A stretch of DNA of 64,000 bases from Escherichia phage UE-S1: the sequence record ON568341.1. The stretch is one strand, 5' to 3'. This document shows, piece after piece, positions 1-29,861 of the stretch; the stretch's first letter is position 1, and every line of letters begins with the position of its first letter. The notes below the pieces were generated by a model. That model was not told the origin of the DNA. It saw only the letters and a list, made by a program, of their open reading frames with translations, and made no database searches. The position numbers were made by a program, and so were the translations under genes.

Positions 1-180
1 GTAATTAACACTGAAGAAGAGTTCTTCCAGTACAGTACTGTGTACCCAGAGAGGATTGTTTTCAGTTCAGTGATTTACACTACCCTTAAAAATGAACTAA
101 ATTCCGATAGTGATCATTTCTACTTGGACCTGAATAATATCGATTGTATTATTGAGTACATGGAGAAAAATGGTTTATGA
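1..180 (+). CDS. family-1 paralog, C-terminal fragment (5' end cut by window edge)
   Basis: Frame 1 open from nt 1 to TGA at 178-180; translation ...TEEEFFQYSTVYPE... carries the family-1 motif. Confidence 0.55.
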   Translation, partial: VINTEEEFFQYSTVYPERIVFSSVIYTTLKNELNSDSDHFYLDLNNIDCIIEYMEKNGL

Positions 181-680
181 TTACTACAGAATATGATTAC
201 AATAGTGTCCTTGAATTTGCAGAAAATATATATCGTATTGCAAAGGAGTTCAGAAGTCCTGAGCCGTTTGGTGGTATGTTCGAATACGATGAGTTTAGTT
301 CATCAAAAGGAAGACTTGCATTTACTAATGGTAGAGGTAATCAAATCTACACAGAGTACTTTGATGACAATGACTTTCATCACAAAGCCGAATACATTTC
401 ATATTGCCCTGGGTCTGATTTGAAGATTCATATTGAAAGAGATATAGAAAATGTATTTGTTCCATATACTGATTTAGTCTTCATGTCAGAGGAAATGTAC
501 TTTCAGGAATCATTGATTCATGATACAAAAGTACTTAATACTATATTATTATATGGTACACTACTTAATCATTACAAATACAATCAAAGATTCTTTTTAG
601 ATTTAGTAGTATACCATCAATGTGTGGATTATTTGAATGCAAAATCAGACAACAATTCAGTACATGACCGATGGTTCTGA
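177..680 (+). CDS. family-1 paralog (EExxFQxS-motif protein)
   Basis: 167 aa ORF; ATG overlaps upstream stop (ATGA); C-terminal SEEMYFQESLI motif. Confidence 0.7.
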   Translation: MITTEYDYNSVLEFAENIYRIAKEFRSPEPFGGMFEYDEFSSSKGRLAFTNGRGNQIYTEYFDDNDFHHKAEYISYCPGSDLKIHIERDIENVFVPYTDLVFMSEEMYFQESLIHDTKVLNTILLYGTLLNHYKYNQRFFLDLVVYHQCVDYLNAKSDNNSVHDRWF

Positions 681-999
681 ATACTTTGTTTCAAGATATG
701 TAATAAATCACAACCATTATGTAACCTATATTCCAGAGTACAATCAATTTTATATCCAGATTTATCAACATAATGGAAAGAGAAATGATATATATTCAGA
801 AATAAAAATCCCTGATTATAGTTCTTTATCAGAAGAGGAATTGTTTCAGGAGAGCACTATCAGTACTGAAGATGTGTACGAAATAATGGAGTACCAGAAG
901 GTACTTAAACATTTTCATGAAACAAATGATATACAAATAGATATTGTTAAACCGTGGTGTTACAATACATATGAGGTAAATTATGTTAGAAATGATTAA
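664..999 (+). CDS. family-1 paralog (short member)
   Basis: Track ORF 637..999; in-frame ATG at 664 overlaps upstream stop; SEEELFQESTI motif. Confidence 0.6.
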   Translation: MTDGSEYFVSRYVINHNHYVTYIPEYNQFYIQIYQHNGKRNDIYSEIKIPDYSSLSEEELFQESTISTEDVYEIMEYQKVLKHFHETNDIQIDIVKPWCYNTYEVNYVRND

Positions 1000-1396
1000 A
1001 ATTATGCAACGCTGTCTTATTGACAAATACGGGATATATGGATATCGTTTAAGTGCTCCTATTGACAAAAATAAAACAACCTATGTAAGCTATAATGCTG
1101 TACAAGGGTTTGATATATTCATTAGTACTAATTATCAAATCAAACAAGCTAAAGATGTGTCTATAATGACCCCTGATGAGTTATTTCAGTACAGCTTAGT
1201 TCTTCCTACATGTATCGATTTACAACGTCTAGGAGCGATACAGAAGGTTTTACGCGAACATAAAATACAACCCAATAAAGTTACACACATTCCAGAAACA
1301 ATCTTCAAAACAATAGAAGTAGAAACCCCTGATTATATGTTAAGTGATGATGAATTCTACGAGAAGCACTTCCCTGGTAAAGTTTGGAGAGACTAA
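983..1396 (+). CDS. family-1 paralog
   Basis: 137 aa ORF; TPDELFQYSLV motif. Confidence 0.65.
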   Translation: MLEMIKIMQRCLIDKYGIYGYRLSAPIDKNKTTYVSYNAVQGFDIFISTNYQIKQAKDVSIMTPDELFQYSLVLPTCIDLQRLGAIQKVLREHKIQPNKVTHIPETIFKTIEVETPDYMLSDDEFYEKHFPGKVWRD

Positions 1397-1878
1397 TGAA
1401 CCGAAAGTACAGAGAAACTATGAAGTTCGCTAAGGAGTGTTTAGAGACATTTGATTTCATTTTCGATAACAACGAATCACTAGGTCATTACTTCGTAATT
1501 ACAAAGGAAGAAGATAATAGATACAAGTGTCAAAGATTAGGATACAGTATTGAGTTATCCTTAATGAGTGATGGTTTGATAAACTCCGTCTATGAATCTG
1601 GTAAGACAGATTACATTTCATTTAGATCATGGAGTGATAATATAATGTTCTTGAGTCCTAATGGAAGTAAATATCCATTCATTAATGATTTATCAGAAGA
1701 AAGTTACTTTCAAAACAGTTTAATTTATACAGAAAAAGAACTCAAAATGTTATTCATAATGTCGTACTTTAAAAAGTACTGTAAATTTAAATCATTATCT
1801 TTTGAGATTTCTGCGATGAAAGTATTCATTAAAAATGTAAAAGAATTAAAGAGGGCTTTTAATGTACATAGAAAATGA
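1384..1878 (+). CDS. family-1 paralog
   Basis: 164 aa ORF; SEESYFQNSLI motif; start overlaps upstream stop. Confidence 0.7.
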   Translation: MERLMNRKYRETMKFAKECLETFDFIFDNNESLGHYFVITKEEDNRYKCQRLGYSIELSLMSDGLINSVYESGKTDYISFRSWSDNIMFLSPNGSKYPFINDLSEESYFQNSLIYTEKELKMLFIMSYFKKYCKFKSLSFEISAMKVFIKNVKELKRAFNVHRK

Positions 1879-2404
1879 GAATGTAAAATGCATCACTGAC
1901 ATTTGTATAAAATTAATGAAAATTTTCATTAACCCAAAATACAAGACTCGTTCTTTACGTCATAATATTGATGAGCATTGTACCATTAATATCCTAGGTA
2001 GTATTCTTGATGTAAAATATGATGGTAAACTGTTATTCGGTATAAGAGAAGAGAAAATGGATGATGCATTCTTTTCTTGTAAAGATAAATTTGAACCTTC
2101 TGATTATAAAGTAATTATTCGTGATGATAGCATCTATATTAGTAGTGATTATTCAAATTACTTCGATAAAATATACACTGAAAACGTTGATTACCATTAT
2201 GAAATGCTAGATTTACCAGTAACAGACATTGATATGGAGAGAATCAAATTTTCATTATCAGATAATGAGTACTTAGGTATACAAACATATTATTCACTAC
2301 AAGGAAAGATTCCACCTGCTATGTATATAAGGATTGAGATTGGTAATGTATTCAATGATAAGGTTATATCAATTGCTGATAAAATATTGAGGGTTGAATT
2401 ATGA
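1862..2404 (+). CDS. family-1 paralog (divergent, motif degenerate)
   Basis: 180 aa ORF in the same tandem array and size class; motif position reads SDNEYLGIQTY. Confidence 0.6.
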   Translation: MYIENENVKCITDICIKLMKIFINPKYKTRSLRHNIDEHCTINILGSILDVKYDGKLLFGIREEKMDDAFFSCKDKFEPSDYKVIIRDDSIYISSDYSNYFDKIYTENVDYHYEMLDLPVTDIDMERIKFSLSDNEYLGIQTYYSLQGKIPPAMYIRIEIGNVFNDKVISIADKILRVEL

Positions 2405-2964
2405 ATGGCCATGATTACCAATTCCATAGACTAGAATTTAGACACTGTGTTGCATATGCAAAAACATTAATGTGCATCATTGACACTCTTTCATCCGAAC
2501 AATTTCGTAAGGATAATGATTTATTGCTGAAAAAAGGTCGTATAACATCATCCGATATCGGTATTGAACTATTTGTTGAAATCAGTGTTGATACCGGAGA
2601 CAGTACAAGGGCTGGTTGTATAGGTCATATTGGTACACATTGTTTCACATGGAATCCAAATACAAGTCAAGTTAGAATTGATTATAGAAATTCACGTTGG
2701 GTTGATCTTAGTACTGAATCAGATTTAGAATCAGTTATGTTCCAGCTAAGTTTAATTCACGATCCTAATGAACTTCTTTATATTATTACTTTCAGTTATC
2801 TGTTACAAAACTACGATAGTCCATCAGGGTTTTTCATAGAATCAGATATAGATGAAATTATGGAAGAGATTCCTAGTTTAAAGAATATTCTGGAAAAAAA
2901 AGATTTCTATAATGACTTCAGAGATTTATACGACATGCACTTGGAGTTATTTAAGAATGGATAA
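2401..2964 (+). CDS. family-1 paralog
   Basis: 187 aa ORF; ATGA overlap with upstream; LESVMFQLSLI motif. Confidence 0.7.
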   Translation: MNGHDYQFHRLEFRHCVAYAKTLMCIIDTLSSEQFRKDNDLLLKKGRITSSDIGIELFVEISVDTGDSTRAGCIGHIGTHCFTWNPNTSQVRIDYRNSRWVDLSTESDLESVMFQLSLIHDPNELLYIITFSYLLQNYDSPSGFFIESDIDEIMEEIPSLKNILEKKDFYNDFRDLYDMHLELFKNG

Positions 2965-3475
2965 AGATGATATTCTAATTAGACTAGTTCAAAGTTTGAT
3001 AAAGTTCGCAAATAATGATATCAATACATACAAAGTAGGTGATATTGAATTCAAATCATTTGGTATGTACGGTGATGACGAAACATATTATGCTTCAATG
3101 AAATTTCAAGAATTTCACGAGATGTTAATATCGTTATCATACGAAGATGTTGACCCAAGATGGAGTTCCAGTATTTCACTATCGAGAATGGTAATTCGTA
3201 GTAAGCATCGTTACATTTCGTCAAAGAATACTCCTAACTTGATTAATATTGTGTTGAATGAAAATACAAACCCCCTATCTAAATATGATATCGTACCTTT
3301 AACCGATGAAGCAATTTTTCAATTGAGTACCATTTGTGATGAAGATGTGATATCATGTATGAAAATTTATGAGAAAGTTGGGGGTGATATTCCCATGAAC
3401 TATTACCTAACTATAGATGAAACGTATCTCCAAGATGATGTTCTGGCGTACATTGACAGTGTTTTACCAAAATAA
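2957..3475 (+). CDS. family-1 paralog
   Basis: Track ORF 2912..3475; likely start ATGGATAA at 2957 overlapping upstream stop; TDEAIFQLSTI motif. Confidence 0.65.
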   Translation: MDKDDILIRLVQSLIKFANNDINTYKVGDIEFKSFGMYGDDETYYASMKFQEFHEMLISLSYEDVDPRWSSSISLSRMVIRSKHRYISSKNTPNLINIVLNENTNPLSKYDIVPLTDEAIFQLSTICDEDVISCMKIYEKVGGDIPMNYYLTIDETYLQDDVLAYIDSVLPK

Positions 3476-3497
3476 AGACCCGTTATGGGTCTTTTTG
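3475..3497 (+). terminator. rho-independent terminator candidate
   Basis: Hairpin AGACCCGTTATGGGTCT followed by T-rich run directly after the stop codon. Confidence 0.55.
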
Positions 3498-3551
3498 TGT
3501 TTATGGCTTTACAAGAGCATTCAGGTGTGTTATACTTGATTTCAAATAGAG

Positions 3552-4130
3552 TTGGAGGAATCTATGAGTACTGAATTAATTAAAGAAGTTACCTTACTTC
3601 TGAAGCATTGTTTTAAGTTCATTCCTGATACTGGTTCACGCCAGTACATTAAAGTTAATGAGAAATATAACATCAATATCCTTGTATCTGAAACTGCGAG
3701 CAGCTATGCTAACATTGAGTTGGATTCTGAAGAAAAATATACAGTATTACAAATCATAGCAGATGTACAACGTAAACAAGATTATCGTTCTTCATTTGAC
3801 AACGATTATCTGTGTGTTTGCTCAAACTTCAGTGAGAATAAAATTGTGTATAAGAATTTATACACACATGAAGTGATTGATACATATAATTATAAAATTT
3901 CATCTGATGAATACAATGTGCTAATGTTCAACGCAAACCTTTTGTATGATGCCAGTACTGTACGCTGTTTAGAGTTAGCATATAAAATTCCAAAGATCAT
4001 GGAAAGAAAAGATTTGATTCACTTTAAAACTATTTTAAAATACAGTACAAAAGAATTAGAAGATTTAGTACAGGCTCTTAAGAATTTCATTAATGAACAT
4101 GTACCTGTTAAATTCGAGGATGCACAATGA
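3552..4130 (+). CDS. family-1 paralog (divergent)
   Basis: 192 aa ORF; RBS GGAGG upstream; same size class; degenerate motif EYNVLMFNANLL. Confidence 0.6.
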   Translation: MEESMSTELIKEVTLLLKHCFKFIPDTGSRQYIKVNEKYNINILVSETASSYANIELDSEEKYTVLQIIADVQRKQDYRSSFDNDYLCVCSNFSENKIVYKNLYTHEVIDTYNYKISSDEYNVLMFNANLLYDASTVRCLELAYKIPKIMERKDLIHFKTILKYSTKELEDLVQALKNFINEHVPVKFEDAQ

Positions 4131-4711
4131 ACCATATCAGAACTAAAATTTTGAGACTCATGCATGACATTTCAGAACTTTCAGAGATTCATGACATTAC
4201 AGAAATTGTTGAATTTGATGATTATCGACTGAAAATTGAAAACAAATCCAAACATCGTTTTGGTTCAGTTCAGTTGGATGTATATAAAACTTATGAATTT
4301 TCTAAAAAAATTAAAAGTTCATGGGATACGATTACTATGTACATTCGCACATCCAGAAATCGTGAACGTATTGGTTCTATTTCTTCTAATATGATATTTG
4401 CGAATGCATTACATGAAAAAATGAATAAAATTGTAGAATCTGATTTCAGTAAAGATGATGGTTTTATTGGTTTGGATGTTCCACCAGAATTAGATCAAAG
4501 TGAAGATATTCGAGATGCATTCATTTTCCAGAAATCATTGTTGGACAATTACAAAGAATTCGAGTACTTAATGCTTTGTTACGATACTGCAAAAATTCTT
4601 GATTGTGGTGAACTAGTTATGTACAATGATTTTATCAATTGCAAGACTGATGTTCTGAATACACTACTTCAAAATATAGAATCTGTTAAGGAAAAATATG
4701 AACGCTTATAG
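4127..4711 (+). CDS. family-1 paralog
   Basis: 194 aa; ATGA overlap; DAFIFQKSLL motif. Confidence 0.7.
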   Translation: MNHIRTKILRLMHDISELSEIHDITEIVEFDDYRLKIENKSKHRFGSVQLDVYKTYEFSKKIKSSWDTITMYIRTSRNRERIGSISSNMIFANALHEKMNKIVESDFSKDDGFIGLDVPPELDQSEDIRDAFIFQKSLLDNYKEFEYLMLCYDTAKILDCGELVMYNDFINCKTDVLNTLLQNIESVKEKYERL

Positions 4712-5276
4712 TTATATGACAGAACGTCATCAGATATTATATGATATCAGTGCTAAAATGTTATCAATTGTTAGTAGTACAAAAGAAATTGAAAAACAAT
4801 ACCTCATCCGTGATGTAGCAATTTCATCTAAATGTTGGTCCAATGAATATTACGATCACGGTATTCTTACTATTTCTGGGGCTAGAAATATTTGTATTGT
4901 AAAAAATAAGAAAAAATGCAATGAAGAGTGTGAAATTAGTTCTGATATCCAAATAAAGGATGATGGAAGCTTTTCTCATCATCCATTCCATATTAGTACT
5001 ATTGGTGTTTTATATAATATTAAAGTACTATTCGGTGATGAAGAGTATGTGTTAAAAGCTATCAATCCAGAATCAAGTACAGTTGAAGAAGAACTGTTCC
5101 AGATGAGCACGGTTATACCTGAAGAGGTTCTTAGTACTGTTATTTTTTGTAGTTTAATTTATCATGAATACAAAAAGAACCAGTTCGATTTCCACATGTT
5201 AGGAACGTACATCTTCAATAATTTGAGCGTAGATCGTTTAAAAGCATTAAATTCAGCGATGGATAAGGTTCTATAA
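4698..5276 (+). CDS. family-1 paralog
   Basis: 192 aa; VEEELFQMSTV motif. Confidence 0.7.
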   Translation: MNAYSYMTERHQILYDISAKMLSIVSSTKEIEKQYLIRDVAISSKCWSNEYYDHGILTISGARNICIVKNKKKCNEECEISSDIQIKDDGSFSHHPFHISTIGVLYNIKVLFGDEEYVLKAINPESSTVEEELFQMSTVIPEEVLSTVIFCSLIYHEYKKNQFDFHMLGTYIFNNLSVDRLKALNSAMDKVL

Positions 5277-5704
5277 TGACAAGAGATGATTGTTTGTACA
5301 TATGGGATGTAGTTGAAAATACACTTTCAAATCCAGAAAATTATAAAACACAAAAAAGACAGCGACACAAAACATGGATAGATTTGTTCGTTGAGGACAT
5401 ACATGCAGTGACTATTTGGGATTCACCGAGGGCATCAGCATCTACTCTATTGGACAATGAATGCATTGATTGCATTAATTCCACTTTTCATCTACACGGT
5501 TCTACAATTTTTGGTACATTTCTGGATATTGAAAATAAAGATGATATTGATTCACTTGCGTTACAATATCAAGTACTGTATAATACTAAATTAATTTACG
5601 ATTTAGTACTAGCTTCTTATGTGTATAAATTAATGATGAAATATAATCACATTTCTGTATCAGTTTATACCAAGGATATTCTTTCATTAAGAGACAAAAC
5701 ATGA
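5276..5704 (+). CDS. family-1 paralog (divergent)
   Basis: 142 aa ORF in array; degenerate motif LALQYQVLYN. Confidence 0.55.
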   Translation: MTRDDCLYIWDVVENTLSNPENYKTQKRQRHKTWIDLFVEDIHAVTIWDSPRASASTLLDNECIDCINSTFHLHGSTIFGTFLDIENKDDIDSLALQYQVLYNTKLIYDLVLASYVYKLMMKYNHISVSVYTKDILSLRDKT

Positions 5705-6210
5705 GTTTATTAAATGCACGAGAATTAGTTGAGATGTATGAGATCTTATCTTCATATAAAAATTCCCCAAAAGATGTAATTCTCAACAAAAAGTTCCATG
5801 TCAATGTTGATCATATGAAAAATATAGATATGATTTCTTTAGTGGAAAGTAGTAAATCGGGTCTTGAGCGTGATATCATGCGTTTGATTTATATTACCAA
5901 ACCATCATATACTAATGATAGTTCAATTAGTAATGAGACGTTTTTGTACACTCCTTATACTGATTGTACTTTAGTTTCAGTGTCTAATCAGAAACAAGAT
6001 ACTATCCAATTCATCAATACCAGTACTGATAACATTGAAGAAAATGAATTCCAAAACAATACATTAAGTTCATGTAGTAGTGTTATAACCTTTATGTCAT
6101 ATCTGTGGTCAATAAAATCAAATGCAATTGTATATAGTTCTAATTACACACAAGATAGTATTGTTGAATCATATAAAGCTCTGAAGGAATACTATGAAAA
6201 TAACAAATGA
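5701..6210 (+). CDS. family-1 paralog
   Basis: 169 aa; IEENEFQNNTL motif; ATGA overlap. Confidence 0.65.
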   Translation: MSLLNARELVEMYEILSSYKNSPKDVILNKKFHVNVDHMKNIDMISLVESSKSGLERDIMRLIYITKPSYTNDSSISNETFLYTPYTDCTLVSVSNQKQDTIQFINTSTDNIEENEFQNNTLSSCSSVITFMSYLWSIKSNAIVYSSNYTQDSIVESYKALKEYYENNK

Positions 6211-6775
6211 TTTTTTTAAATGTTTAGTACACCCTATGCTGAGTGTTATGAAAAAATTACAGAATCTACCGGAAGACAACGATTACAAGTTTAATCGTTT
6301 TGATTCAGATGTATTTTGTATTGAAATTGAAATGAATAATAATCGTAATTTGCATTTAAAATTCAAAGAATCGTCAAGTCCGTATTACAACTTTGATATG
6401 AATTTTAAAATAGATACTGACATTGAAGAAAACGTAATATCAAATCATACTAGCAAAAATGGTTTTAAGCATAGAACTACTATGTACAATAATAAAAATA
6501 GTATTATATCTAAATGGTTTCACCAATTCACAAAAATTGGTGAAATTGAATATAGTGATTTTGGTGAAGAGCAATACTTTCAGTTGAGTACAATTCATGA
6601 ACTTCCACCATATGATTATGTTAAAACATGGTTTGATATTCATAATATAATTGATGATGCAATCAAACTTCCATTTGGGGTATCAATATCATATACTGCT
6701 CCTAAAACATTTGTTTTTACTGAAGATATGATTATGAAAAAGATATGGGCAATTATCCCACTTATGATGGATTAA
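6194..6775 (+). CDS. family-1 paralog
   Basis: 193 aa; GEEQYFQLSTI motif. Confidence 0.7.
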   Translation: MKITNDFFKCLVHPMLSVMKKLQNLPEDNDYKFNRFDSDVFCIEIEMNNNRNLHLKFKESSSPYYNFDMNFKIDTDIEENVISNHTSKNGFKHRTTMYNNKNSIISKWFHQFTKIGEIEYSDFGEEQYFQLSTIHELPPYDYVKTWFDIHNIIDDAIKLPFGVSISYTAPKTFVFTEDMIMKKIWAIIPLMMD

Positions 6776-6781
6776 ATTTAT

Positions 6782-6806
6782 ACCAGGGGTTGACTCTGGT
6801 ATTTTT
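6782..6806 (+). terminator. rho-independent terminator candidate
   Basis: Hairpin ACCAGGGGTTGACTCTGGT followed by TTTTT. Confidence 0.45.
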
Positions 6807-6836
6807 GTATGATACATTATCCTAAAGGAGAATTTT

Positions 6837-7388
6837 ATGAACTACAATCATGATCTTTTTACATTATGTGCATCAAAATGTGTTGATGGTTGGGCAGATA
6901 AAATCAATACCATAATTCATCGATATCTCGTCTTTAGTTCCCGTGCACGAAGTGAGGGGGCTATGGATTTCAAATATACACTATCTATTGATGGTGTAAC
7001 TATCCATGCAGACGAAGAACGTCTGAGCATTAATTTGTATGATTCCTGTGTATTTGCTATTCACCAAAAGATGGGGACAGGATGGGGTTGTAATAACATT
7101 AACTCCAAAGCTATCTTTTGGGTTGGTCACCATCAGACAGTACTTGATCCTTCAATTAAATCTAATCTTTTATCCGATAATATGGTTTATGATTTATTGT
7201 ACTCCGAAGAACAACATTTTCAATTAAGTACATTGCATGATCTGGCACAGTACGAGGATTGTTACAAAACATTAGAACTATGCCATTCCCTTGAACTCAA
7301 AGATAAATTGATACAAGTTTACCCTTCATTCTTTCATGAAGAAGTACAATGCACACTAGAACATATTTTATATGGGTACGACAAATGA
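6837..7388 (+). CDS. family-1 paralog
   Basis: 183 aa; RBS AAAGGAG upstream; SEEQHFQLSTL motif. Confidence 0.7.
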   Translation: MNYNHDLFTLCASKCVDGWADKINTIIHRYLVFSSRARSEGAMDFKYTLSIDGVTIHADEERLSINLYDSCVFAIHQKMGTGWGCNNINSKAIFWVGHHQTVLDPSIKSNLLSDNMVYDLLYSEEQHFQLSTLHDLAQYEDCYKTLELCHSLELKDKLIQVYPSFFHEEVQCTLEHILYGYDK

Positions 7389-7987
7389 GAAAAAGTTATC
7401 AAGAAACTATTGACCTAATTAGAGAAGTTATTAAAGTGGCCCCTGGTGCGATAGCATTCAAGAAGTCCCTATATAAAAAGTATGGCTCCATGTCAAATAT
7501 GTGTTGTCAAAAGAAACGTAGTAAATTCACTACGCAGTACTGGCATGATTCTATTATCCTTAGTAATGAACATCAGCGTATTTTAACAATCGAATCAGTA
7601 GATAATCAATATGGTGAAGGAATGATTTGTGTACCTGATTATGATGAAATTAACTTCAACTGCGGTGATTTTGAAACAACATTATTACTTCACGAGGGTT
7701 ATCCAGAAGGTGATGTATTAGCTGAGTACAATCCAAAAACTAAAATTCTCAAAAGAGGAATCCAGTTCACTATTAATAACAAAGATGATGTTGAAGCAGC
7801 ACTAATGCAACTGAGTACAAGTGAACCTATTACTATTAGTGTAGAAGAGTTATGGGGAATTATTTCAGTCCTCAATGAATGCTACAAAGTAAAATCATTG
7901 CGTAATCACACCCTTATATTGCATACTAATATGGCAAATATAAAATGTAAGCACATTCAAGAAATGGCGGTTCCAGATGGACTTTAA
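7385..7987 (+). CDS. family-1 paralog
   Basis: Track ORF 7349..7987; likely ATG at 7385 overlapping upstream stop (ATGA); EAALMQLSTS motif. Confidence 0.65.
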   Translation: MRKSYQETIDLIREVIKVAPGAIAFKKSLYKKYGSMSNMCCQKKRSKFTTQYWHDSIILSNEHQRILTIESVDNQYGEGMICVPDYDEINFNCGDFETTLLLHEGYPEGDVLAEYNPKTKILKRGIQFTINNKDDVEAALMQLSTSEPITISVEELWGIISVLNECYKVKSLRNHTLILHTNMANIKCKHIQEMAVPDGL

Positions 7988-8561
7988 AGAAATTGAAAGT
8001 AAATTAAAGTACTTCAAAGATATCAAACTTCTTTGGGAAAAGTATAAAATTGATTACAAATTCAGTGATGATGAGACAATAAAATCCATTGATATTAATA
8101 TCAAAATCAAGTTCAAGAATAATAATTATGGTGAAGTAAGCTTAAATCATACTGGTGTATCACTCAGGGACTATGATGGTTCAACACTCGCATATTTCGA
8201 CTTCATTCCAGAACCAGGTGAAACACTACTTAGTGAGATAAATTCCTATGATATGGAAATATTCGGCGGGAATCCGTTACTGTTCCGACTGTCTGAAGAG
8301 TGGAGTGAAGAATACTACACTTACAAAGATGGTGTAGTACTTGACATTAATGGAGAAGTTGTGAATGACTTGGAAGAACGTTTGTTCCAAGAATTGTGTG
8401 TTTCAAATACTTCATATGCATACAATCATATCCTTGACATGTTTGATTTATATAGTAAAATAGATGCTGAAATGAATGCACATGGTATTCATTACCTTAC
8501 AATTAACGACTATGCTCAACTCGAAACCGCTGTGAAAGCATTGACTAAAGTACTGAAATAG
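7977..8561 (+). CDS. family-1 paralog
   Basis: 194 aa; LEERLFQELCV motif. Confidence 0.65.
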   Translation: MDFKEIESKLKYFKDIKLLWEKYKIDYKFSDDETIKSIDINIKIKFKNNNYGEVSLNHTGVSLRDYDGSTLAYFDFIPEPGETLLSEINSYDMEIFGGNPLLFRLSEEWSEEYYTYKDGVVLDINGEVVNDLEERLFQELCVSNTSYAYNHILDMFDLYSKIDAEMNAHGIHYLTINDYAQLETAVKALTKVLK

Positions 8562-8570
8562 GAATGAAAT

Positions 8571-8984
8571 ATGAAACTGTATCATGCGAGTACTGTAAAA
8601 ATTGATAACTTTTATATCCCGTATGGTGGTCTTCATATGGGAGGTAAACACAGTGCTTTGGAAGCTGCATTACGCAAGCTGAGAAGCCCACTGAACGTAG
8701 TAGACGCATGTACAGTATACTTGCATACCTTAGAAGTTGATGTTGATAACGTGCTTCTGTGTGAAGATTTAGGCAGTGATGATGAGTGGCGTTCACTTAT
8801 TGAGAATTGCACTGCTCAAGGTTATGATGCTGTTCAGTACAAAAATGATTACGAGCCAGACAATGTTCCTAGCTTTATGATTTGGGATGCATCTAAAGTT
8901 CGCATCATTGAAGTTGATGCTATGCATATGGATGAAGCTGAAATGATTATCGAAGATTTTCTTGATGAATATGAAGGTGTATAA
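8571..8984 (+). CDS. hypothetical protein interrupting the family-1 array
   Basis: 137 aa ORF with RBS; lacks the family motif; N-terminal LYHAS...GLHMGG and acidic C-terminus. Confidence 0.6.
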   Translation: MKLYHASTVKIDNFYIPYGGLHMGGKHSALEAALRKLRSPLNVVDACTVYLHTLEVDVDNVLLCEDLGSDDEWRSLIENCTAQGYDAVQYKNDYEPDNVPSFMIWDASKVRIIEVDAMHMDEAEMIIEDFLDEYEGV

Positions 8985-9520
8985 TGACTGACCCGATGGT
9001 AGCACTGGCACGTACTAAGTTACTATTAAAGATTGGTGAGATTTTTACGGTTCTTCTGTCCAATAATATTGATATTACTGAGCTAGATATTAAGCAACCG
9101 TGGGAAGTGACTATGTTCTCGGCGTTCCACCGATTGTCATATAAAGGTGAAAGTGTTCTTGATTTTAACCCTAAAGCAAAATTCATAGATTATGCTGCGT
9201 TGTACAGAGAGTTGCACCGAAATATTTATTCCGGTTGTATAACCAATAACTTCAAAGAAATTAAAGTTCAAACTGCATCACATGAGTTCAATGATTTACT
9301 CTATCCAGAATTTAATCTAACTGAAGAATTACTTTTTCAGTACTCGTTAATTCTCACAAATCTAGAATCACTCGAGTACTACACAAAGTTAGTAGATATT
9401 TTTATGAATACACGACTTTCAAAAGATATTGTGATATTCTGGTATACAGAGCATGTTACGGAGGAATTGCTTACTGAATTTCTTCTAAATATGACAGCTA
9501 TAAAGGAGAAGTTATGTTAG
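8984..9520 (+). CDS. family-1 paralog
   Basis: 178 aa; TEELLFQYSLI motif; ATGA overlap. Confidence 0.7.
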   Translation: MTDPMVALARTKLLLKIGEIFTVLLSNNIDITELDIKQPWEVTMFSAFHRLSYKGESVLDFNPKAKFIDYAALYRELHRNIYSGCITNNFKEIKVQTASHEFNDLLYPEFNLTEELLFQYSLILTNLESLEYYTKLVDIFMNTRLSKDIVIFWYTEHVTEELLTEFLLNMTAIKEKLC

Positions 9521-9987
9521 ATATTTTAGGAAACATCGATACTGCAAATTATTTTATCCAAGACGCACTGTTTAATACACTACAAAAAGGTTTAGAAGTT
9601 CGTTACAACGTATATCAAGGTGATGGATATTTTGTTGATATTCTAGAAACACGTAAAAATACATTTAATGTTAACATTACGACGTTTGGAAGACAGAACA
9701 TTGCACGAATTTTAGTAAGTAAAGATGAAATAGTACTGAGATACAGTGCTAAGTTTATGTTGACGTACAAGAAAAAAACAGACATGTTCAGTACTAATTT
9801 ATTTGATGAACCATTTGACCTTGTAGATATTGAAGCTACTTTCTTTACTCAAAGTACTATGGTAAAATACACTGATGTTCAATTTTCATCAGACGTTATG
9901 TCTGAAACATTACAAATGATCAAGGTATTATTTTATGCATTTGAGCAATTCAGAGAAGAAAGAAACAAGGTTAACAACCACAGATGA
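9514..9987 (+). CDS. family-1 paralog (divergent)
   Basis: 157 aa; EATFFTQSTMV motif variant. Confidence 0.6.
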   Translation: MLDILGNIDTANYFIQDALFNTLQKGLEVRYNVYQGDGYFVDILETRKNTFNVNITTFGRQNIARILVSKDEIVLRYSAKFMLTYKKKTDMFSTNLFDEPFDLVDIEATFFTQSTMVKYTDVQFSSDVMSETLQMIKVLFYAFEQFREERNKVNNHR

Positions 9988-10348
9988 ACTAATAGAGGCG
10001 ATCACTAAGGAGTCAAAATACCACAAAGGGATTCGTCTATATTTTATAGATCTTGGTTCGATGGAAGGTACATACATTTATGGTTCACAATCATTGTCTT
10101 ATGATGCAATGCCAGATAAACATGTTAAAATCTTTCTAGGTTCAAGTAATAAAACTTTCTTGACAATTAATGATAACAGTGTTATTATGAATTCCCTGGG
10201 TCATGACAAAGTAGAAATTGACCTAAACACATTAGAAGAAATGGATTTTTTTCAATACGAGTGTTTAGGCGTTGACTTACATGGTATCAGTAGTGATATG
10301 ATAAAATCATTAATTAAATATTTCGAAGGTGTTTATAAATGTATCTAA
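9935..10348 (+). CDS. family-1 paralog (short member)
   Basis: 137 aa; LEEMDFFQYECL motif; start uncertain. Confidence 0.55.
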   Translation: MHLSNSEKKETRLTTTDELIEAITKESKYHKGIRLYFIDLGSMEGTYIYGSQSLSYDAMPDKHVKIFLGSSNKTFLTINDNSVIMNSLGHDKVEIDLNTLEEMDFFQYECLGVDLHGISSDMIKSLIKYFEGVYKCI

Positions 10349-10845
10349 CTAAATCGATGAAAAATTCATTAGATAATATAAAGAGTGTAATTAGTGGTGA
10401 GTATATTGCTAGTGTAACACAAACTGCTGACCAGATACAAAGTAGTTCTAGTGATTGTACTGTGATTCTCGGTTTACACAGTCTACGTTTATCAATAGTA
10501 AATAATATTGACAACACTGCTATTGTAATCACACCATGTCATATTCAAAATGAGAATGGTGTATATCTTCATCACATGGGAACAGTATTTTACATTTTCA
10601 ATACAAACAATACACTCGAAACAATTGTCAAAGAATATAATACACTTAACATTGATCCGGGTGAATTATTTCAGATGAGTACGTTGTATTCATGTGATTT
10701 TACAGATACCTCACATATTTTACCATTTTTCTTGGAAATTCTAAAGAAAATGGAAAAATTAAATCGTGAATACAATAAAAAAATGGTTCCAGAAGCTATA
10801 TTAAATATTACTGATGCTATGAAAAAATATAAAGCAGTGCCTTAA
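10339..10845 (+). CDS. family-1 paralog
   Basis: 168 aa; PGELFQMSTL motif. Confidence 0.65.
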   Translation: MYLTKSMKNSLDNIKSVISGEYIASVTQTADQIQSSSSDCTVILGLHSLRLSIVNNIDNTAIVITPCHIQNENGVYLHHMGTVFYIFNTNNTLETIVKEYNTLNIDPGELFQMSTLYSCDFTDTSHILPFFLEILKKMEKLNREYNKKMVPEAILNITDAMKKYKAVP

Positions 10846-10890
10846 TAAAAAAAACGCACATGGAGTGCATATGAAGATCAAGGATAGATC

Positions 10891-11364
10891 ATGGAGATTA
10901 AAACTGTTGAAAATGGGAAAATTGATGACATTTTAGACTTGGACGCATTCAAAGTTCATGATATAATGTTTAATGTGAAGGACATTATTCAATGTCTGTT
11001 TTTATGCAGCAAGACTATGCATGATTTTTTTCACAACCCGAATACTAATGTTTTTATACTTACAATCAGTACTGAAAACTCGTTTATCATGGGTATGCCC
11101 ATGAGTACAAATGAACAGTATATTGATTGTGTTATTCGCAATAATGATTGTATTACCCCACAATCTGAAGTTCGCAAAAAGAAAAACACTTACACAATCA
11201 AAGATGATAAAATCATGATGTGTTGCAGTAAAGGATTTATATTGGACAATTTCATCGTCAAAGATAGTTATCATGACTTTAAAATTTCCGAAAATCAATC
11301 CAATGTAGTTCTTTATGCTAGTGATATCGAAAGTTTAACAGTCAAAGATCCTAGTTTGGAGTAA
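10891..11364 (+). CDS. hypothetical protein
   Basis: 157 aa ORF, no family motif. Confidence 0.55.
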   Translation: MEIKTVENGKIDDILDLDAFKVHDIMFNVKDIIQCLFLCSKTMHDFFHNPNTNVFILTISTENSFIMGMPMSTNEQYIDCVIRNNDCITPQSEVRKKKNTYTIKDDKIMMCCSKGFILDNFIVKDSYHDFKISENQSNVVLYASDIESLTVKDPSLE

Positions 11365-11498: not shown

Positions 11499-11527
11499 TT
11501 TTTTGTCTAAATTTTTGAGGATTGTAT

Positions 11528-12376
11528 ATGTTGGACATTTCAGATTTTCTTAATTTTAAAAAGTATTCAGTACTTGAACATATCAACGAATTTCTGAATT
11601 CCCCAACACCATTTGGTATCAGTACATCAGATTCATACGATGGATATAGAATCTTCCCATGCAATGACTTTCAAATTTCTGTCAAAAAAGGTTTTACAAA
11701 AGAAGTTGCAATTCGTGATGTAGTAATGTATAGCGATTCTTCTATTTCTTACTGTCATGATGTGAACAATTTTGAATCTCTTTCAACACCTAATTGTTCA
11801 TACTACAAATCCCATGACACGATGATGTATAAAGAACAACATATCAATGGTGTTTCGTTCTACAAAACTAGCAGTGATAAATCATATACATCTAGAGATG
11901 ATTTTGGAAAATACACATGTACTATGCACACGGATAATGAAAAAACAAATTACACTCATTCATTCGAGTCCAAATTCCAAGAGAGTGAAGTTTCAAATAT
12001 CACTATACAAGAACAGGTTTCAGAAGGCATTGTATATCGTAGTACTGCATTCTTTCGCATGAAAGATGTTGCCACAGGCAGACCAATGATGTACAATATT
12101 GACATATACATGAAAGGTGATATATCAGAAGTAGTGATTAGTACTGGTTATCGTGAAAAATATACAGTTACAATGGAATCACCAGATGCATCGTTAGTTC
12201 ACCTCTTTAACAATTTATATACATTCCAATTCGAACTTAGTTTAGACTACAATGAATATCAAATATTCGATATATTAAAAAGTAATATTATTAATAAGTT
12301 AGAATATTACTACAAGTTAGGTGGTAAGATGTGCATAGTTAATACTATGTTACATAACATAAAAGAAACATTATAA
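11528..12376 (+). CDS. hypothetical protein
   Basis: Track ORF 11522..12376 (TTG); first ATG at 11528 with GAGG RBS. Confidence 0.6.
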   Translation: MLDISDFLNFKKYSVLEHINEFLNSPTPFGISTSDSYDGYRIFPCNDFQISVKKGFTKEVAIRDVVMYSDSSISYCHDVNNFESLSTPNCSYYKSHDTMMYKEQHINGVSFYKTSSDKSYTSRDDFGKYTCTMHTDNEKTNYTHSFESKFQESEVSNITIQEQVSEGIVYRSTAFFRMKDVATGRPMMYNIDIYMKGDISEVVISTGYREKYTVTMESPDASLVHLFNNLYTFQFELSLDYNEYQIFDILKSNIINKLEYYYKLGGKMCIVNTMLHNIKETL

Positions 12377-13550: not shown

Positions 13551-14405
13551 ATGAAACTTTATCTAATAGTTGACTATAATAAGGATTATGCTGGTAACTT
13601 CACCGAAGATTCGGATGGATATTGCACATCGACTAATGTCAATGTACGTAGCAGTAGTGCTCATGAACATGAATCTTGTAAAAATCTAAAAGATTTTATC
13701 ACATACCGAGCATTTGAAAAGAACTTCTGCCGCAGTAGATATTCTAAGTTTGAGTACCCATTAATTGATGTTCCTGATGAATTGATGTTCCAGCTAATGT
13801 TAACTGGAGTTCAAGATTATGATTATATTGCTTATAATCACATAACAAAGAAGATTTACATTGGAACATCAGTACACGATACTTCCATGTATGCATCATG
13901 CCCAGATGATCGAATGAAGCATAGAAATTCATACTATAGTGGATCAGTTGGTTCAAATAATTCATCAAATAAAAATTCATTCTTTGAGTACGTGTATGAT
14001 TACCATCACGAGAAAAAAGAACGTGAAGATTACTGTATAGAGATTGATAGTACTAATGGATATGAAGACGTAAAAGAAGCTCTTATGCCATACATTATAG
14101 AAAAATACTACAAAGATTTTCAGTACTGTAGTAATTTTCTAATCAGAAATTCTATTCAAATCGGTCGTCAATCCACTGCATACGCTATGTACTACAGTGA
14201 TTCTCCAGTTGTAGCAGGAAATGAAAGGGGTGATATCCTACCAATTCCACGTGAAGATATGACATTCATTTTTACATCTTTTATTGAGGATGATGAATTG
14301 TACGTTAAAAATAAGCATCGTTTCATGCCAAGTAAAATTGAGATTATTAGAAGCATCAGTGTTGATATATTAACCAATTTTACTGAAAAAACTGAATATA
14401 ACTGA
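13551..14405 (+). CDS. family-1-related protein with C-terminal extension
   Basis: 284 aa; GGAG RBS; VPDELMFQLML motif in N-terminal third. Confidence 0.6.
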   Translation: MKLYLIVDYNKDYAGNFTEDSDGYCTSTNVNVRSSSAHEHESCKNLKDFITYRAFEKNFCRSRYSKFEYPLIDVPDELMFQLMLTGVQDYDYIAYNHITKKIYIGTSVHDTSMYASCPDDRMKHRNSYYSGSVGSNNSSNKNSFFEYVYDYHHEKKEREDYCIEIDSTNGYEDVKEALMPYIIEKYYKDFQYCSNFLIRNSIQIGRQSTAYAMYYSDSPVVAGNERGDILPIPREDMTFIFTSFIEDDELYVKNKHRFMPSKIEIIRSISVDILTNFTEKTEYN

Positions 14406-14422
14406 GACAAAATAGAAGTTAA

Positions 14423-14463
14423 TGATATAATGTGAGGTGACAGTATATACTGTCACCTTTTTT
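14423..14463 (+). promoter_or_regulatory. TGATATAAT element followed by terminator hairpin
   Basis: TGATATAAT at 14423-14431; hairpin GGTGACAGTATATACTGTCACC plus T6. Confidence 0.45.
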
Positions 14464-14469
14464 AATCCT

Positions 14470-15136
14470 GAAAGGTTCCTATAAGGAAATGATTAAAAGC
14501 CTAATCCACTCGAAAATGTAGAGGGTAGATGAGTAGTCCTTTCAGTACGAACAGCAGAAGAAACCCGTCAGATGTGGGCATAGTTTGAACCCCTCACGGC
14601 AATGCGGCTCAGAAGAAACCCGTCAGATGTGGGCATAGTTTGAACCCCTCACGGCAATGCGGCTGTATAAAGAACTCCAATAGGATAAAGAGAGTTCCTC
14701 GATAGACATATAAGGATCGCACCTTACCAATTATCTAAGGGAGATTTCATAAGAAATATGCGGTCGGAATTATACAATATAGTTGCGTCCAAATTTTGTG
14801 AAATCAAATACAAGTACTGGTCATATGGTATTTGTATTATGTGTCGGGATGTTTAAGACCGACGACCGTTGCTACAAGAACCGCGATAGAGAGAAACAGA
14901 GCAACCCGCTTTCGTCTCGTAAGAGAATTCGTGATATGAACTATGTGAAGGCCACCAGCGTCAAACTTTTTTGTTCTTTCCCCTGCGGGGGGATGAAATA
15001 TGCTCAAGCAAACCTCGTCAATATTAATTAAAAGACTTTATAATACTTGTAGAATTGTACATGCACCGCATGGAGAATTCTACTGATGTTGATGTAATCA
15101 ACATCACGTATATTCATTGATGTTTCCATAGGAATA
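14470..15136. other. GC-elevated non-coding island, candidate structured RNA or cis element
   Basis: About 0.7 kb without a credible RBS-led ORF; visibly higher GC than flanks; several short hairpins (CCCCTGCGGGGGG; GATGTTGA..TCAACATC). Confidence 0.3.
14555..14664. repeat. perfect 55-bp direct tandem repeat, 2 copies
   Basis: CAGAAGAAACCCGTCAGATGTGGGCATAGTTTGAACCCCTCACGGCAATGCGGCT at 14555-14609 and again at 14610-14664. Confidence 0.9.
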
Positions 15137-17959: not shown

Positions 17960-18235
17960 ATGAATTATAAAGTTCTACAATATACATACAGTGTTTTGTT
18001 TGATTTACATCACAATGGAAGATATCTCAATACAATACGAGAAAACACATTTACTCATATGTTATGGATTGATTACTTAGAAACGATTCGTGCATATTTT
18101 GTTAATACTGAGATAATCATTCGTGGTAAAAAACAGAAGATTCAACATGTTAATAGTTATGGTGGTAAATTAACTCTAACATTTACCGATAATAATACTA
18201 ATGAAATGTGTTGTATCGAGTTGGTGAACATATGA
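17960..18235 (+). CDS. family-2 small paralog
   Basis: 91 aa; N-terminal MNYKVLQYTYSVLFDL pattern shared with downstream ORFs. Confidence 0.6.
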   Translation: MNYKVLQYTYSVLFDLHHNGRYLNTIRENTFTHMLWIDYLETIRAYFVNTEIIIRGKKQKIQHVNSYGGKLTLTFTDNNTNEMCCIELVNI

Positions 18236-18498
18236 ATTATAAAGATTTCCAATTAACATATAAGATTATTCGCAATCTAGCACACAACAATGATAGCCCT
18301 AGTCTAGAAGACACATGCACAGAAATGATCCATACGATTCGTGCAAAGATTGAAGAAAATTTCAGTACTGTTATTATTAATGATGACCATGCAGAATTTT
18401 CTGATATAATCATTAGACGTGATGGTAAAGTTGAGGTTCAGTACTACACTGATTTTGGATTTACAAGTGTACCGTTGGAGATATTCCCTTGGGATTAA
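18232..18498 (+). CDS. family-2 small paralog
   Basis: Track ORF 18208..18498; ATG at 18232 overlaps upstream stop; MNYKDFQLTYKII. Confidence 0.6.
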   Translation: MNYKDFQLTYKIIRNLAHNNDSPSLEDTCTEMIHTIRAKIEENFSTVIINDDHAEFSDIIIRRDGKVEVQYYTDFGFTSVPLEIFPWD

Positions 18499-18800
18499 AT
18501 TTAAATGATATACAATTCACTTATAAGGTACTATATGATTTGTATGATGCATACCTTGTTAGTAACAAAATAGGTTCACATAACCCAACCAAAGAACAAT
18601 CATTTATTGATTTATATATTGAGTACTTAGATTCTATTGAAAACTATCTCAAAAAGAATTACAGTACTTTTATCGATGGAAATGATACATTCGATTTCTA
18701 TGGTGTGCAATCATATGATGGTATAATCCATGTTCAATTTCAGGAAAGAACCGATAGGGAATTTATCGAAATTAAAGTTGTGAAGTTGGTGAATTTATAA
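18489..18800 (+). CDS. family-2 small paralog
   Basis: 103 aa, probable TTG start; LNDIQFTYKVLYDL. Confidence 0.55.
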   Translation: MGLNLNDIQFTYKVLYDLYDAYLVSNKIGSHNPTKEQSFIDLYIEYLDSIENYLKKNYSTFIDGNDTFDFYGVQSYDGIIHVQFQERTDREFIEIKVVKLVNL

Positions 18801-18810
18801 GAGGTTACAT

Positions 18811-19122
18811 ATGTTATTAAATGATATACAATTTACATACAAATTTTTGTATATCCAATTCGCAACGGTTGATGCTGGTCAATATATCTACAGTGAAGTT
18901 TATCGTTCGATATGGATAAAGTTTTTGGATGAATTACATGATTATTACCATGATTTGTGTATAGTTCGTGATAATAAAATATACAAATTCCGCGATATTG
19001 TTAGCCATAGCGGTAAGCTAAGATTGGAATTAAGTACTGATAAGGATGTTGATTGGATTGGTGTAAATTTACTGGAGTTGGAGAATGAAAAACAACTTAA
19101 AGGAAATACAAGTATTTTATAA
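18811..19122 (+). CDS. family-2 small paralog
   Basis: 103 aa; MLLNDIQFTYKFLY. Confidence 0.6.
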   Translation: MLLNDIQFTYKFLYIQFATVDAGQYIYSEVYRSIWIKFLDELHDYYHDLCIVRDNKIYKFRDIVSHSGKLRLELSTDKDVDWIGVNLLELENEKQLKGNTSIL

Positions 19123-19369
19123 ATTCTTATACTTATCATATGTAAAAGATGAGTATTATGAAAGTGTGTATTATTTTTTATGGCAACATTACCGTACTAT
19201 AGTAAGAGATTTATATATAGGAAAATCTATCATATCCAATGGTGAAAAATGTACCTGTACGGATGTAGTTAGTTTTAATGGTTCTTTAACACTGTGTTTC
19301 AGATGCGATAATAATAGTGGGTCATTTTCATTAAACGTATATCAGTTAGAAGGAATAAATTTTGAATAA
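19085..19369 (+). CDS. family-2 small paralog
   Basis: 94 aa; LKEIQVFYKFLYL. Confidence 0.55.
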   Translation: MKNNLKEIQVFYKFLYLSYVKDEYYESVYYFLWQHYRTIVRDLYIGKSIISNGEKCTCTDVVSFNGSLTLCFRCDNNSGSFSLNVYQLEGINFE

Positions 19370-19562
19370 ATGTCCATACTGTAACAGTACTCAATTAGCT
19401 CGTTTCCGTTTAGATTCAGACTGGGCGACTGGTGCTGGTGATTTCTTTCCTATTAATGATGATGCGGAATACACCGAAGAACAACTCAAAGATTTTGATA
19501 AATCATGGCGACCTGACATTGAGTGTATTTATTGCCTTAATTGTGAGCGTGTCCATGACTAA
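19362..19562 (+). CDS. small zinc-ribbon protein
   Basis: 66 aa; CPYCNS ... CIYCLNC paired CxxC motifs. Confidence 0.5.
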   Translation: MNKCPYCNSTQLARFRLDSDWATGAGDFFPINDDAEYTEEQLKDFDKSWRPDIECIYCLNCERVHD

Positions 19563-19818
19563 AGCTGAACTAATAGTTCATACATATAAAATGATATCAA
19601 GTACTGAGTCTTCGTATAGTGAAGATAATCCGGTACTGGATTATTTTGTTGAATTATTGAAAGAGCATTATATTGGTAAATCACTGATTCTCAATAATAT
19701 TAATTTCACGGTAAAGGATGTAGCACCTGGAAAAAACATACTAATAGTATGTGTTACTTCATCTGATAACCCAGTATACCCAATATCAATAATTTTTGAG
19801 ATATTAGGAGATTTATGA
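19555..19818 (+). CDS. family-2 small paralog
   Basis: Track ORF 19432..19818; ATG at 19555 overlaps upstream stop; HYIGKSLIL pattern. Confidence 0.55.
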   Translation: MTKAELIVHTYKMISSTESSYSEDNPVLDYFVELLKEHYIGKSLILNNINFTVKDVAPGKNILIVCVTSSDNPVYPISIIFEILGDL

Positions 19819-26723: not shown

Positions 26724-26900
26724 ATGAATGTAAAAACACAGATGTTATTACAAAAAGAATACTTAGAAAATATAGAAATGTTCTATAGATTGTCTTTATA
26801 CGAAAATAAACATAAAAAATATAACTTTTCTAAACAACTAACCACAAGTACTAATGATTATCTATTTTCATCAATGTTTTATGTGAGAGGTTTATTATAA
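26724..26900 (+). CDS. small hypothetical protein (58 aa), candidate
   Basis: ATG-led ORF whose TAA overlaps next ATG (TAATG); below track cutoff. Confidence 0.3.
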   Translation: MNVKTQMLLQKEYLENIEMFYRLSLYENKHKKYNFSKQLTTSTNDYLFSSMFYVRGLL

Positions 26901-29645: not shown

Positions 29646-29861
29646 ATGATAACATTTTTCGCAATATATGGATTTGTAACATTTGTTACATTTATAACCA
29701 ACTTTTTAGTACTTAATTGGGGTTGTTTTAAAGATGAAATCATGATTGCCATGAATCTCCAAACAGCAGCACTAATGGCTATTATTTGGCCTGTAACGTT
29801 AGTATACCTTTTTATTTCACTTACTCAAGATATTATTAACAAATATAAGAGAAAGAACTAA
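29646..29861 (+). CDS. small membrane protein
   Basis: 71 aa, two hydrophobic segments. Confidence 0.5.
   Translation: MITFFAIYGFVTFVTFITNFLVLNWGCFKDEIMIAMNLQTAALMAIIWPVTLVYLFISLTQDIINKYKRKN

Follow-up and report, generated by a model that had tools for sequence, protein, structure and literature searches.

We observed that the first 10,845 nucleotides (nt) of a 64,000-nt stretch of Escherichia phage UE-S1 (sequence record ON568341.1; this whole stretch is called the window below) form the last part of an array in which one small protein is present in about 50 strongly diverged copies. Positions 1-10845 hold 21 complete open reading frames (ORFs) on the + strand, of 120-212 amino acids (aa) as longest ORFs, plus one that is cut by the window edge. 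The sequence-only reading of this DNA had described about 20 paralogous genes here, of 140-195 aa, sharing a motif near the C-terminus (EExxFQxS(T/L)I). The array of paralogs and its C-terminal motif were confirmed by motif counts, by a decoy-controlled hidden Markov model (HMM) and by conservation over the whole protein. Of the 21 ORFs, 12 are firm members, six are probable and two possible, while one (8571-8984) is a non-member. We are nearly certain that the multigene family is real and as described, and the window ORFs are true paralogs.

The strict form of the motif, FQxS[TL][ILVM], occurred 13 times in the + strand ORFs of the window, whereas 500 shuffles that preserve composition gave an expectation of 0.048 (maximum 2). 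With an acidic prefix added it occurred eight times, and never in the shuffles. All six peptides quoted in the sequence-only reading were found at their ORFs. The HMM was iterated from five seed ORFs at E<1e-3, against a database containing one reversed and five shuffled decoys per ORF. It recruited 42 proteins (14 in the window and 28 upstream in the related phage 121Q), each by a model that did not yet contain that protein, and no decoy passed. When the iteration was confined to the window it stopped at 13 members; adding the upstream region of 121Q raised the total to 42. The conservation ran through the whole protein, beyond the FQ motif, and none of the 73 minus-strand ORFs of the window matched the family HMM.

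The similarity might instead be an artefact of AT-rich composition, low complexity, a repeated DNA element or non-coding ORFs. In its favor, pairwise similarity is very weak (mean column identity of 8-13%), and an all-vs-all phmmer comparison gave few significant pairs, forming only two small groups. Profile iteration was needed because the members are too diverged for pairwise methods. The artefact explanation is, however, already refuted, and we give it practically no chance. The alignment and HMM check revealed neither a low-complexity nor a compositional artefact, and the absence of decoy hits, the excess of the motif and the lack of minus-strand matches all speak against it. The codons at the invariant residues vary freely (F, TTT 25 and TTC 17; Q, CAG 25 and CAA 17; Ser, AGY 24 and TCN 10); therefore the conservation is at the protein level and not that of a DNA repeat, and a repeated DNA element was ruled out as the cause of the motif. 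Ratios of nonsynonymous to synonymous substitution (omega, or dN/dS) below one, the high-confidence fold predicted from the family alignment and the finding of the same arrays in genomes of 28-38% guanine-cytosine (GC) content also contradict an artefact.

From sequence matches, the window DNA is assigned to Asteriusvirus, the ~350-kb jumbo myovirus type of E. coli and Salmonella, because nt 1-11000 matched 33 phage records including Escherichia phage BF17 (the top match, 94.3% identity) and 121Q, PBECO4, phAPEC6, SP27 and others (93-94%). Every gene under this match is annotated as 'hypothetical protein' in the related records. The GC content of the window is 30-36%, and nearly all its genes lie on the + strand. 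In 121Q, the family extends 18 kb upstream of the position equivalent to the window start (gp342-gp387), adding the 28 firm members, and a scan of 109-258 kb yielded two more dispersed copies, gp505 and gp534. This gives 121Q at least 44 firm members, and about 50 likely ones, among its ~611-618 genes (109-258 kb scanned), most of them within one 28-kb locus. The expansion had been called unusual for a phage, which agrees with these counts, since a survey of jumbo phages called an expansion of ~35 copies in phage G 'unprecedented' and made no mention of the present family (PMC7824862).

We also evaluated other phages and metagenomes, using an HMM trained on coliphage members only. Klebsiella phage RaK2 carries an array of 29-32 members, which is followed by dam and cytidyltransferase genes as in the window. 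In Erwinia phage Hallingskeid (38% GC), 27 of 38 ORFs in 21 kb are members, and in two metagenomic contigs of ~100 kb each the fractions are 34/47 and 24-25/42. A profile search of 1.84 billion representative proteins returned only 177 clusters at E<=1e-3; among the 150 matching clusters listed, all were of 65-229 aa and 134 had an FQxS-type motif. No fusions, informative names or Pfam domains were seen among the homologs, including those in a set of 5.8 billion proteins, and structure-based matches in BFVD were limited to the same phage group. The named sources are jumbo phages of Escherichia, Salmonella, Klebsiella and Erwinia. Tens of clustered paralogs per genome within one viral clade, the pattern of a multigene family, were thus found. 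About 8% of the genes of 121Q, PBECO4, phAPEC6, RaK2, K64-1 and relatives fall in this one family, which is among the largest paralog expansions in any phage, and phages of the 121Q/RaK2 group are widely isolated and are therapeutic candidates. The profile and the motif can now be used to annotate family members.

Two side observations concern this distribution. At the very end of the linear Hallingskeid record (piece L010), positions 47-2424 hold seven consecutive short-form members (108-119 aa); a sub-array can thus arise by expansion of the short form alone, in which the N-terminal helix is missing. In addition, many family proteins have database entries under 'Escherichia coli', on contigs of 350-360 kb; assemblies of E. 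coli isolates thus seem to include complete jumbo-phage genomes, through a carrier state, pseudolysogeny or contamination.

The structure of the member at 1396-1875 was predicted by AlphaFold2 from a 149-sequence alignment, with a predicted local distance difference test (pLDDT) of 92.8 and a predicted template modelling score (pTM) of 0.88. The predicted elements are a helix at residues 3-24, seven strands within residues 34-94, a helix at 101-107 that carries the motif, and then a helix (113-128), a strand (133-137) and a last helix (138-159). On this model, the members are predicted to share one alpha/beta domain, made of a long N-terminal helix, a sheet of about seven strands, the short motif helix and a helix-strand-helix C-terminus. 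The motif lies in helix 101-107 and the next turn (pLDDT ~94-97), within the near-invariant segment [ST]-E-E-x-[YL]-F-Q-x-S-[LT]-[VI]-[YH]-[DN], where F is present in 149 of 149 sequences and Q in 148 of 149; in 15-20% of members, other residues stand in place of the acidic ones and Ser. The motif region has a mean information of 2.07 bits and 0.1 inserted residues per sequence, as compared to 0.56 bits and, on average, 21 inserted residues in the sheet region. Moderate conservation was seen at hydrophobic or aromatic positions of the N-terminal helix, in two central strands (Y-I-x-Y) and in the C-terminal strand (F-Y-x-D). As modelled, the motif segment and the helices form a scaffold nearly free of insertions and deletions, and the beta-sheet is hypervariable in both sequence and length.

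Members measure ~105-230 aa, short forms of ~110 aa being without the N-terminal part. The proteins are acidic (median isoelectric point, pI, of 4.76; net charge -10; pI<5.5 in 81%), and only two members reach a transmembrane-like hydropathy, so that the family is predicted to be soluble. Neither a sequence match nor a fold match to the family was found in the PDB, and the confidently predicted fold appears to be without a solved relative.

When the window was compared with 121Q, all firm members had omega<1 (0.07-0.58, median 0.21), which establishes purifying selection on each of them; the family did not differ from neighboring genes in omega (p=0.11). Reciprocal-best pairs were collinear between the coliphages and RaK2 (16 pairs, rho=0.88, p=8e-6) and between the coliphages and metagenome contig L002 (19 pairs, rho=0.80), and most members have their closest relative in another genome rather than among their own paralogs. 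The expansion therefore largely predates the split of the genera, and the copies have been kept individually since. Such an ancient, collinear array is a stably retained set of distinct genes, not an expansion with fast turnover, although some younger local duplications exist (e.g. 121Q gp370-374). The sequence-only reading had suggested a diversifying accessory function; rapid, ongoing diversification is contradicted, since all omega values between close relatives are below one and gene order is collinear between Escherichia and Klebsiella phages. As phages of different genera keep the members singly and in the same order, a separate function is probable for each copy.

The dS values between the window and 121Q differed sharply between adjacent genes (0.03-0.80). 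The ORF 1384-1878 is an outlier, with 64% protein identity to its 121Q ortholog and a dS of 0.80, while its neighbors have ~92% identity; a 98%-identical allele of it is present in public reads (P0176). These jumps in dS suggest occasional allele replacement by recombination within the array.

Most junctions in the array overlap by 1-17 nt, and Shine-Dalgarno-like sequences are present. The members had been described as chained by ATGA overlaps, which is true of four junctions (2401, 4127, 5701 and 7385); the others differ, and the array is interrupted by three gaps of 45-88 nt. The genes lie close together and are probably co-transcribed in operon-like blocks. A terminator-like hairpin at 3474-3494 (+) is followed at 3508-3536 (+) by a sigma-70-like promoter sequence (TTTACA-17-TGtTATACT), and the hairpin and putative promoter together (3474-3536) would split the array into transcription blocks. 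A further hairpin of this kind (6780-6802), with a possible extended -10 promoter, stands before the next block (6780-6836, +). Pairs of a hairpin and then a sigma-70-type promoter occur in the gaps 3476-3563 and 6776-6836 and at several places in 121Q, often with an extended -10. Strict promoter-like sites numbered 24 on the + strand vs 2 on the - strand and were about three times denser in intergenic DNA.

In the 121Q genome, ~90 tiny genes directly precede the array, and genes for Dam methylase, RNA ligase and polynucleotide kinase follow it. This layout resembles, as far as sequence can tell, an early region transcribed by the host RNA polymerase, and the related phage PA5oct relies on the RNA polymerase of its host (PMC7318152). 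No transcriptome for Asteriusvirus or Alcyoneusvirus was found in the literature searched. The phAPEC6 orthologs gp378c/379c and gp404c-466c were not among the 62 virion proteins detected by mass spectrometry (PMC7247149, Table 1), and the family proteins are non-structural. As a separate observation, the tiny genes of 121Q occupy a field of ~30 kb (131.3-160.8 kb) on the + strand, encode 45-110 aa, often with gaps of 60-100 nt, and start at a strand switch opposite an array of RCC1-like 'DNA condensation' genes.

The motif had been said not to be a characterized domain, and the databases agree: it had no match in Pfam, NCBIfam, PADLOC or the PDB, and PHROGs listed it only under 'unknown function'. 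None of 26 ORFs matched Pfam at E<=0.01, and nothing among the non-canonical ORFs reached the Pfam gathering score at E<=1. NCBIfam gave only two chance-level matches, and PADLOC two isolated ones among the 26 ORFs (E=0.004-0.007), again at chance level and without any defence component. PHROGs holds orthologs of the window ORFs in phrog_12674, 13866, 34017, 9317, 38467 and about 20 others, roughly one group per ortholog with few cross-hits, and does not record the unity, size or motif of the family. No description of the family was found in the literature searched; the RaK2 paper states that ~10% of RaK2 proteins are paralogs, the sole remark there.

What the proteins do can be approached from these properties. 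We tentatively favor, at somewhat less than an even chance, the proposal that the array is an early-expressed set of paralogs, each of which binds its own, fairly conserved target in the host (or phage). The host sigma-70 RNA polymerase would transcribe the array genes early; the variable sheet of each paralog would then bind a different target, most likely a host protein, and together the members would be specific binders or inhibitors that serve host takeover or counter-defence. The FQ segment might be the structural keystone of the fold or a shared docking surface. A role in host takeover or anti-defence can reasonably be inferred from the protein properties and the genomic context. The ~50 'hypothetical proteins' become one testable question, namely what the variants of one scaffold bind, and if they are host-directed binders, they would offer many new inhibitors of conserved enterobacterial proteins.

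Several points weigh against this proposal. The early timing derives only from promoter-like sequences and genomic position, and a general promoter scan showed no overall enrichment (89 found vs 93.5 expected). The long-term 1:1 conservation under purifying selection across host genera does not suit fast-evolving targets, such as most defence systems; because of it, counter-defence is a weaker suggestion than conserved host or phage targets. The variable sheet is assigned as a binding surface by analogy. Finally, an active or ligand-binding site would be an equally good reading of the invariant segment, whose 13 residues are rich in polar ones (E, E, Q, S, D/N). In that case the family might be one of enzymes, in which E-E...Q..S...D/N forms a catalytic or a metal- or nucleotide-binding site and the substrates differ among paralogs. 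The clustering of the invariant polar residues in one segment and the purifying selection on each gene would fit. However, no sequence or fold similarity to any enzyme family was found, strictly invariant F and Q are unusual for catalysis when the acidic residues and Ser are replaceable, and ~50 paralogous enzymes in one phage would lack precedent; we regard this explanation as decidedly unlikely.

The extreme conservation of the polar-rich motif beside a hypervariable region could also mean that the FQ segment docks one common partner while the variable sheet selects ~50 substrates, with the targets being delivered and not merely inhibited. The partner might be a phage ClpP-like or HslV-like protease, the host RNA polymerase or the ribosome; in 121Q, peptidases annotated as ClpP-like and HslV-family lie on the strand of the array, 25-30 kb downstream of it. 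Against this, the protease genes are not adjacent to the array, the motif sits in a confidently folded helix-loop junction (pLDDT >94), and a structural role would fit the capping-box-like pattern (S/T-x-x-E) at its start. We consider such docking and delivery unlikely. In its fullest form, which we find a shade less likely again, it would be a phage-encoded modular adaptor system of previously unseen fold: the EExYFQxS helix would dock all members to one hub (such as the phage ClpP/HslV-like protease or the host transcription or translation machinery), and ~50 sheet faces would each capture a different host protein. If true, it would be a phage counterpart of the F-box/BTB/ankyrin expansions of giant eukaryotic viruses, and would mean programmable remodelling of the host proteome by jumbo phages. 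There is a slender chance, smaller than that of enzymes, that the proteins are assembly helpers, i.e. non-virion chaperones or scaffolds, each for one structural, fibre or whisker protein. They are absent from virions, yet conserved 1:1 across genera that have a complex virion in common. The array, however, is distant from the structural modules, its neighbors being genes of early type with sigma-70-like promoters, and fibre chaperones are normally encoded next to their client genes. The superficial likeness of E-E-x-Y-F-Q-x-S to the tobacco etch virus (TEV)/3C site E-N-L-Y-F-Q|S would make the motif a processing site or degron and the proteins protease substrates, which is highly improbable. 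In the family, Q can be followed by many residues (E, L, Y, N, M, Q, K and others) and Ser stands at +2, the segment is a helix in a confidently folded domain rather than a linker, and the annotation of the ~150 kb of 121Q inspected lists no 3C-like protease. As the family proteins are not virion components, the prohead protease does not come into play. A TEV/3C cleavage site was thus ruled out on residue positions and structural context, and this explanation is largely refuted.

Large multigene families in big viruses are of a known kind; what is new about this one is its sequence, fold, size and stability. The MGF360/505 families of African swine fever virus and the ankyrin and BTB-kelch families of poxviruses are tandem arrays of diverged non-structural paralogs, as here, which are generally tied to host range and immune evasion and have a conserved scaffold and variable surfaces. 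The present family is found in bacteriophages, is unrelated to them in sequence or fold, and is stable in copy number and order, no sign of accordion-like gain and loss being seen between close relatives. The SUKH/Imm immunity proteins are single alpha+beta domains of ~150 aa that likewise occur in tandem runs of diverged small paralogs, thought to bind different partners. They were ruled out, since there was no Pfam match (SMI1_KNR4 included) and no SUKH-like fold match; no toxin domain was recognized in or beside the array, where the embedded 8571-8984 is the sole non-member. Ocr and ArdA, the anti-restriction DNA mimics, are small, strongly acidic, early and non-structural phage proteins. 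The family is small and strongly acidic too, but it has no sequence or fold similarity to them (Pfam, PDB), and it has ~50 members where these are single genes. The zinc-ribbon expansion of Bacillus phage G (~35 copies, PMC7824862) is comparable in that it consists of many small-protein paralogs of unproven function in one jumbo phage. Our family differs from it in lacking zinc ligands, in its unrelated alpha/beta fold, in its higher copy number, and in being shared and collinear across phage genera, while that of phage G is confined to one phage.

The individual ORFs of the window, all on the + strand, were assigned with the family HMM, with a deep HMM built with 150 distant homologs (E-values are given against the decoy database and/or within the window), with hhalign and with pairwise searches. 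The ORFs starting at 4127, 9935, 3552 and 5701 were placed above all decoys by the deep HMM (E of 1e-4 to 3e-3 within the window). In hhalign, 5276, 4127, 9935, 5701 and 9514 exceeded the decoy ceiling, all in register at the motif, and 1862, 4127, 5276 and 5701 are reciprocal best hits of HMM-positive members at syntenic positions in other phages.

The ORF at the window edge (1-177) is the C-terminal end of a cut member (EEEFFQYSTV) and the ortholog of 121Q gp387, which in full length (121Q piece L001:18702-19178) is a firm HMM member. The next four ORFs are firm: 177-680 (167 aa, SEEMYFQESLI; HMM E<1e-3, deep HMM E=1.4e-26), which gave the first AlphaFold2 model; 637-999 (E=1.6e-13), a short form of 111-120 aa without most of the N-terminal part, possibly starting at ATG 664; 983-1396 (137 aa, TPDELFQYSLV; E=2.8e-9); and 1384-1878, with a likely start at ATG 1396 (160 aa; E=3.1e-24), which is the member modelled above. 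The ORF 1862-2404 (180 aa) has no canonical motif and was not detected by the family HMMs; it is a probable diverged member, as its reciprocal best hits are syntenic HMM-positive members in L002 (6.9e-6) and RaK2 (6.1e-8). Both 2401-2964 (187 aa, FQLSLI; E=9.3e-15), with ortholog pairs in RaK2 and L002, and 2912-3475 (likely start ATG 2957; E=9.4e-12) are firm.

Beyond the first gap, 3552-4130 (likely start ATG 3564) is a probable diverged member without the canonical motif; its deep HMM E is 0.0066 against the decoy database and 7.9e-4 in the window, and hhalign was at decoy level. The ORF 4127-4711 (194 aa, FIFQKSLL) is probable, with deep HMM values of 1.1e-3 and 1.3e-4 and a phmmer match of 1.8e-11 to a firm member at the syntenic position in L002. 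A firm member recruited by the HMM follows at 4698-5276 (192 aa, VEEELFQMSTV). The ORF 5276-5704 (142 aa) is a probable diverged member that matched a firm member of L002 at 4.4e-7 and had the top hhalign score of the ORFs outside the HMM family (16 vs a decoy maximum of 1.7). Also probable is 5701-6210 (169 aa, EFQNNTL; deep HMM 0.027 and 0.0032, above all decoys), with reciprocal best hits at syntenic positions in RaK2 (3.6e-11) and L002 (1.8e-8). The firm 6194-6775 (193 aa, GEEQYFQLSTI) was recruited by the HMM, and 6837-7388 (183 aa, SEEQHFQLSTL) is firm, with a reciprocal best hit in L002 at 1.2e-22.

The ORF 7349-7987 (likely start ATG 7385, ALMQLSTS) is a possible diverged member, its sole support being a pairwise match of 1.8e-4 to the distant member P0060, with HMMs and hhalign negative. 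It is followed by the firm 7977-8561 (194 aa, LEERLFQELCV; E=4.3e-6). The only non-family gene inside the array, 8571-8984 (137 aa), begins MKLYHASTVKIDNF; the HMMs and hhalign showed no relationship to the family, there was no Pfam match, and its PHROG is 11632 (unknown function). At the nucleotide level it does not differ from its ortholog in 121Q (100% identity), and since dN=dS=0 amid flanking genes with dS of 0.05-0.43, a recent exchange or an unusually strong constraint is suggested. A 'putative ADP-ribosyl transferase' label in the annotation of phage ph0011 could not be tied to a specific ORF. The remaining array consists of 8984-9520 (firm, 178 aa, TEELLFQYSLI, with a RaK2 ortholog); 9514-9987 (157 aa, ATFFTQSTM), a possible diverged member slightly above decoys and in register in hhalign, with HMMs negative; 9935-10348 (probable, 137 aa, MDFFQYECL; deep HMM 0.0046 and 5.5e-4, hhalign above decoys); and 10339-10845 (firm, 168 aa, PGELFQMSTL), the final gene of the contiguous array, whose RaK2 ortholog matched at 2.5e-11. 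The ORFs 10891-11364 and 11522-12376 were rejected as members, showing no relationship by HMM, hhalign or pairwise search.

Three further copies had been placed beyond the array, and two of these stood: 21977-22555 (192 aa) and 22552-23241 (229 aa, EEEHFQLMMM; E=1.3e-12) are firm members that form a detached pair, in this order. The third, 13551-14405, matches in the motif only, by a peptide (DELMFQLMLT) near its N-terminus, with an HMM E of 2.7 and hhalign at decoy level, and was rejected for want of detectable homology.

We also observed other loci in the window. The 731 nt of 14406-15136 are without a convincing gene; they start with an extended -10 promoter-like site, TGATATAAT, together with a strong terminator-like hairpin (14434-14459), and hold a perfect tandem duplication of ~55 nt, CAGAAGAAACCCGTCAGATGTGGGCATAGTTTGAACCCCTCACGGCAATGCGGCT, present twice. 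Because the scans of this gap (14.4-15.1 kb) found no Rfam family and no transfer RNA, it may be an uncharacterized small RNA locus. A second, unrelated tandem paralog family lies at 17960-19818 (+), where six consecutive ORFs of 91-128 aa have significant pairwise matches, with some relatively high omega values vs 121Q (0.77 and 0.85). Two 85-aa ORFs, 26900-27157 and 29861-30118 (+), are ~3 kb apart and significantly similar to each other. A third family, at 57594-63643 (+), comprises three adjacent paralogous ORFs of 899, 195 and 910 aa, whose 121Q counterparts, gp499-501, are annotated as hypothetical.

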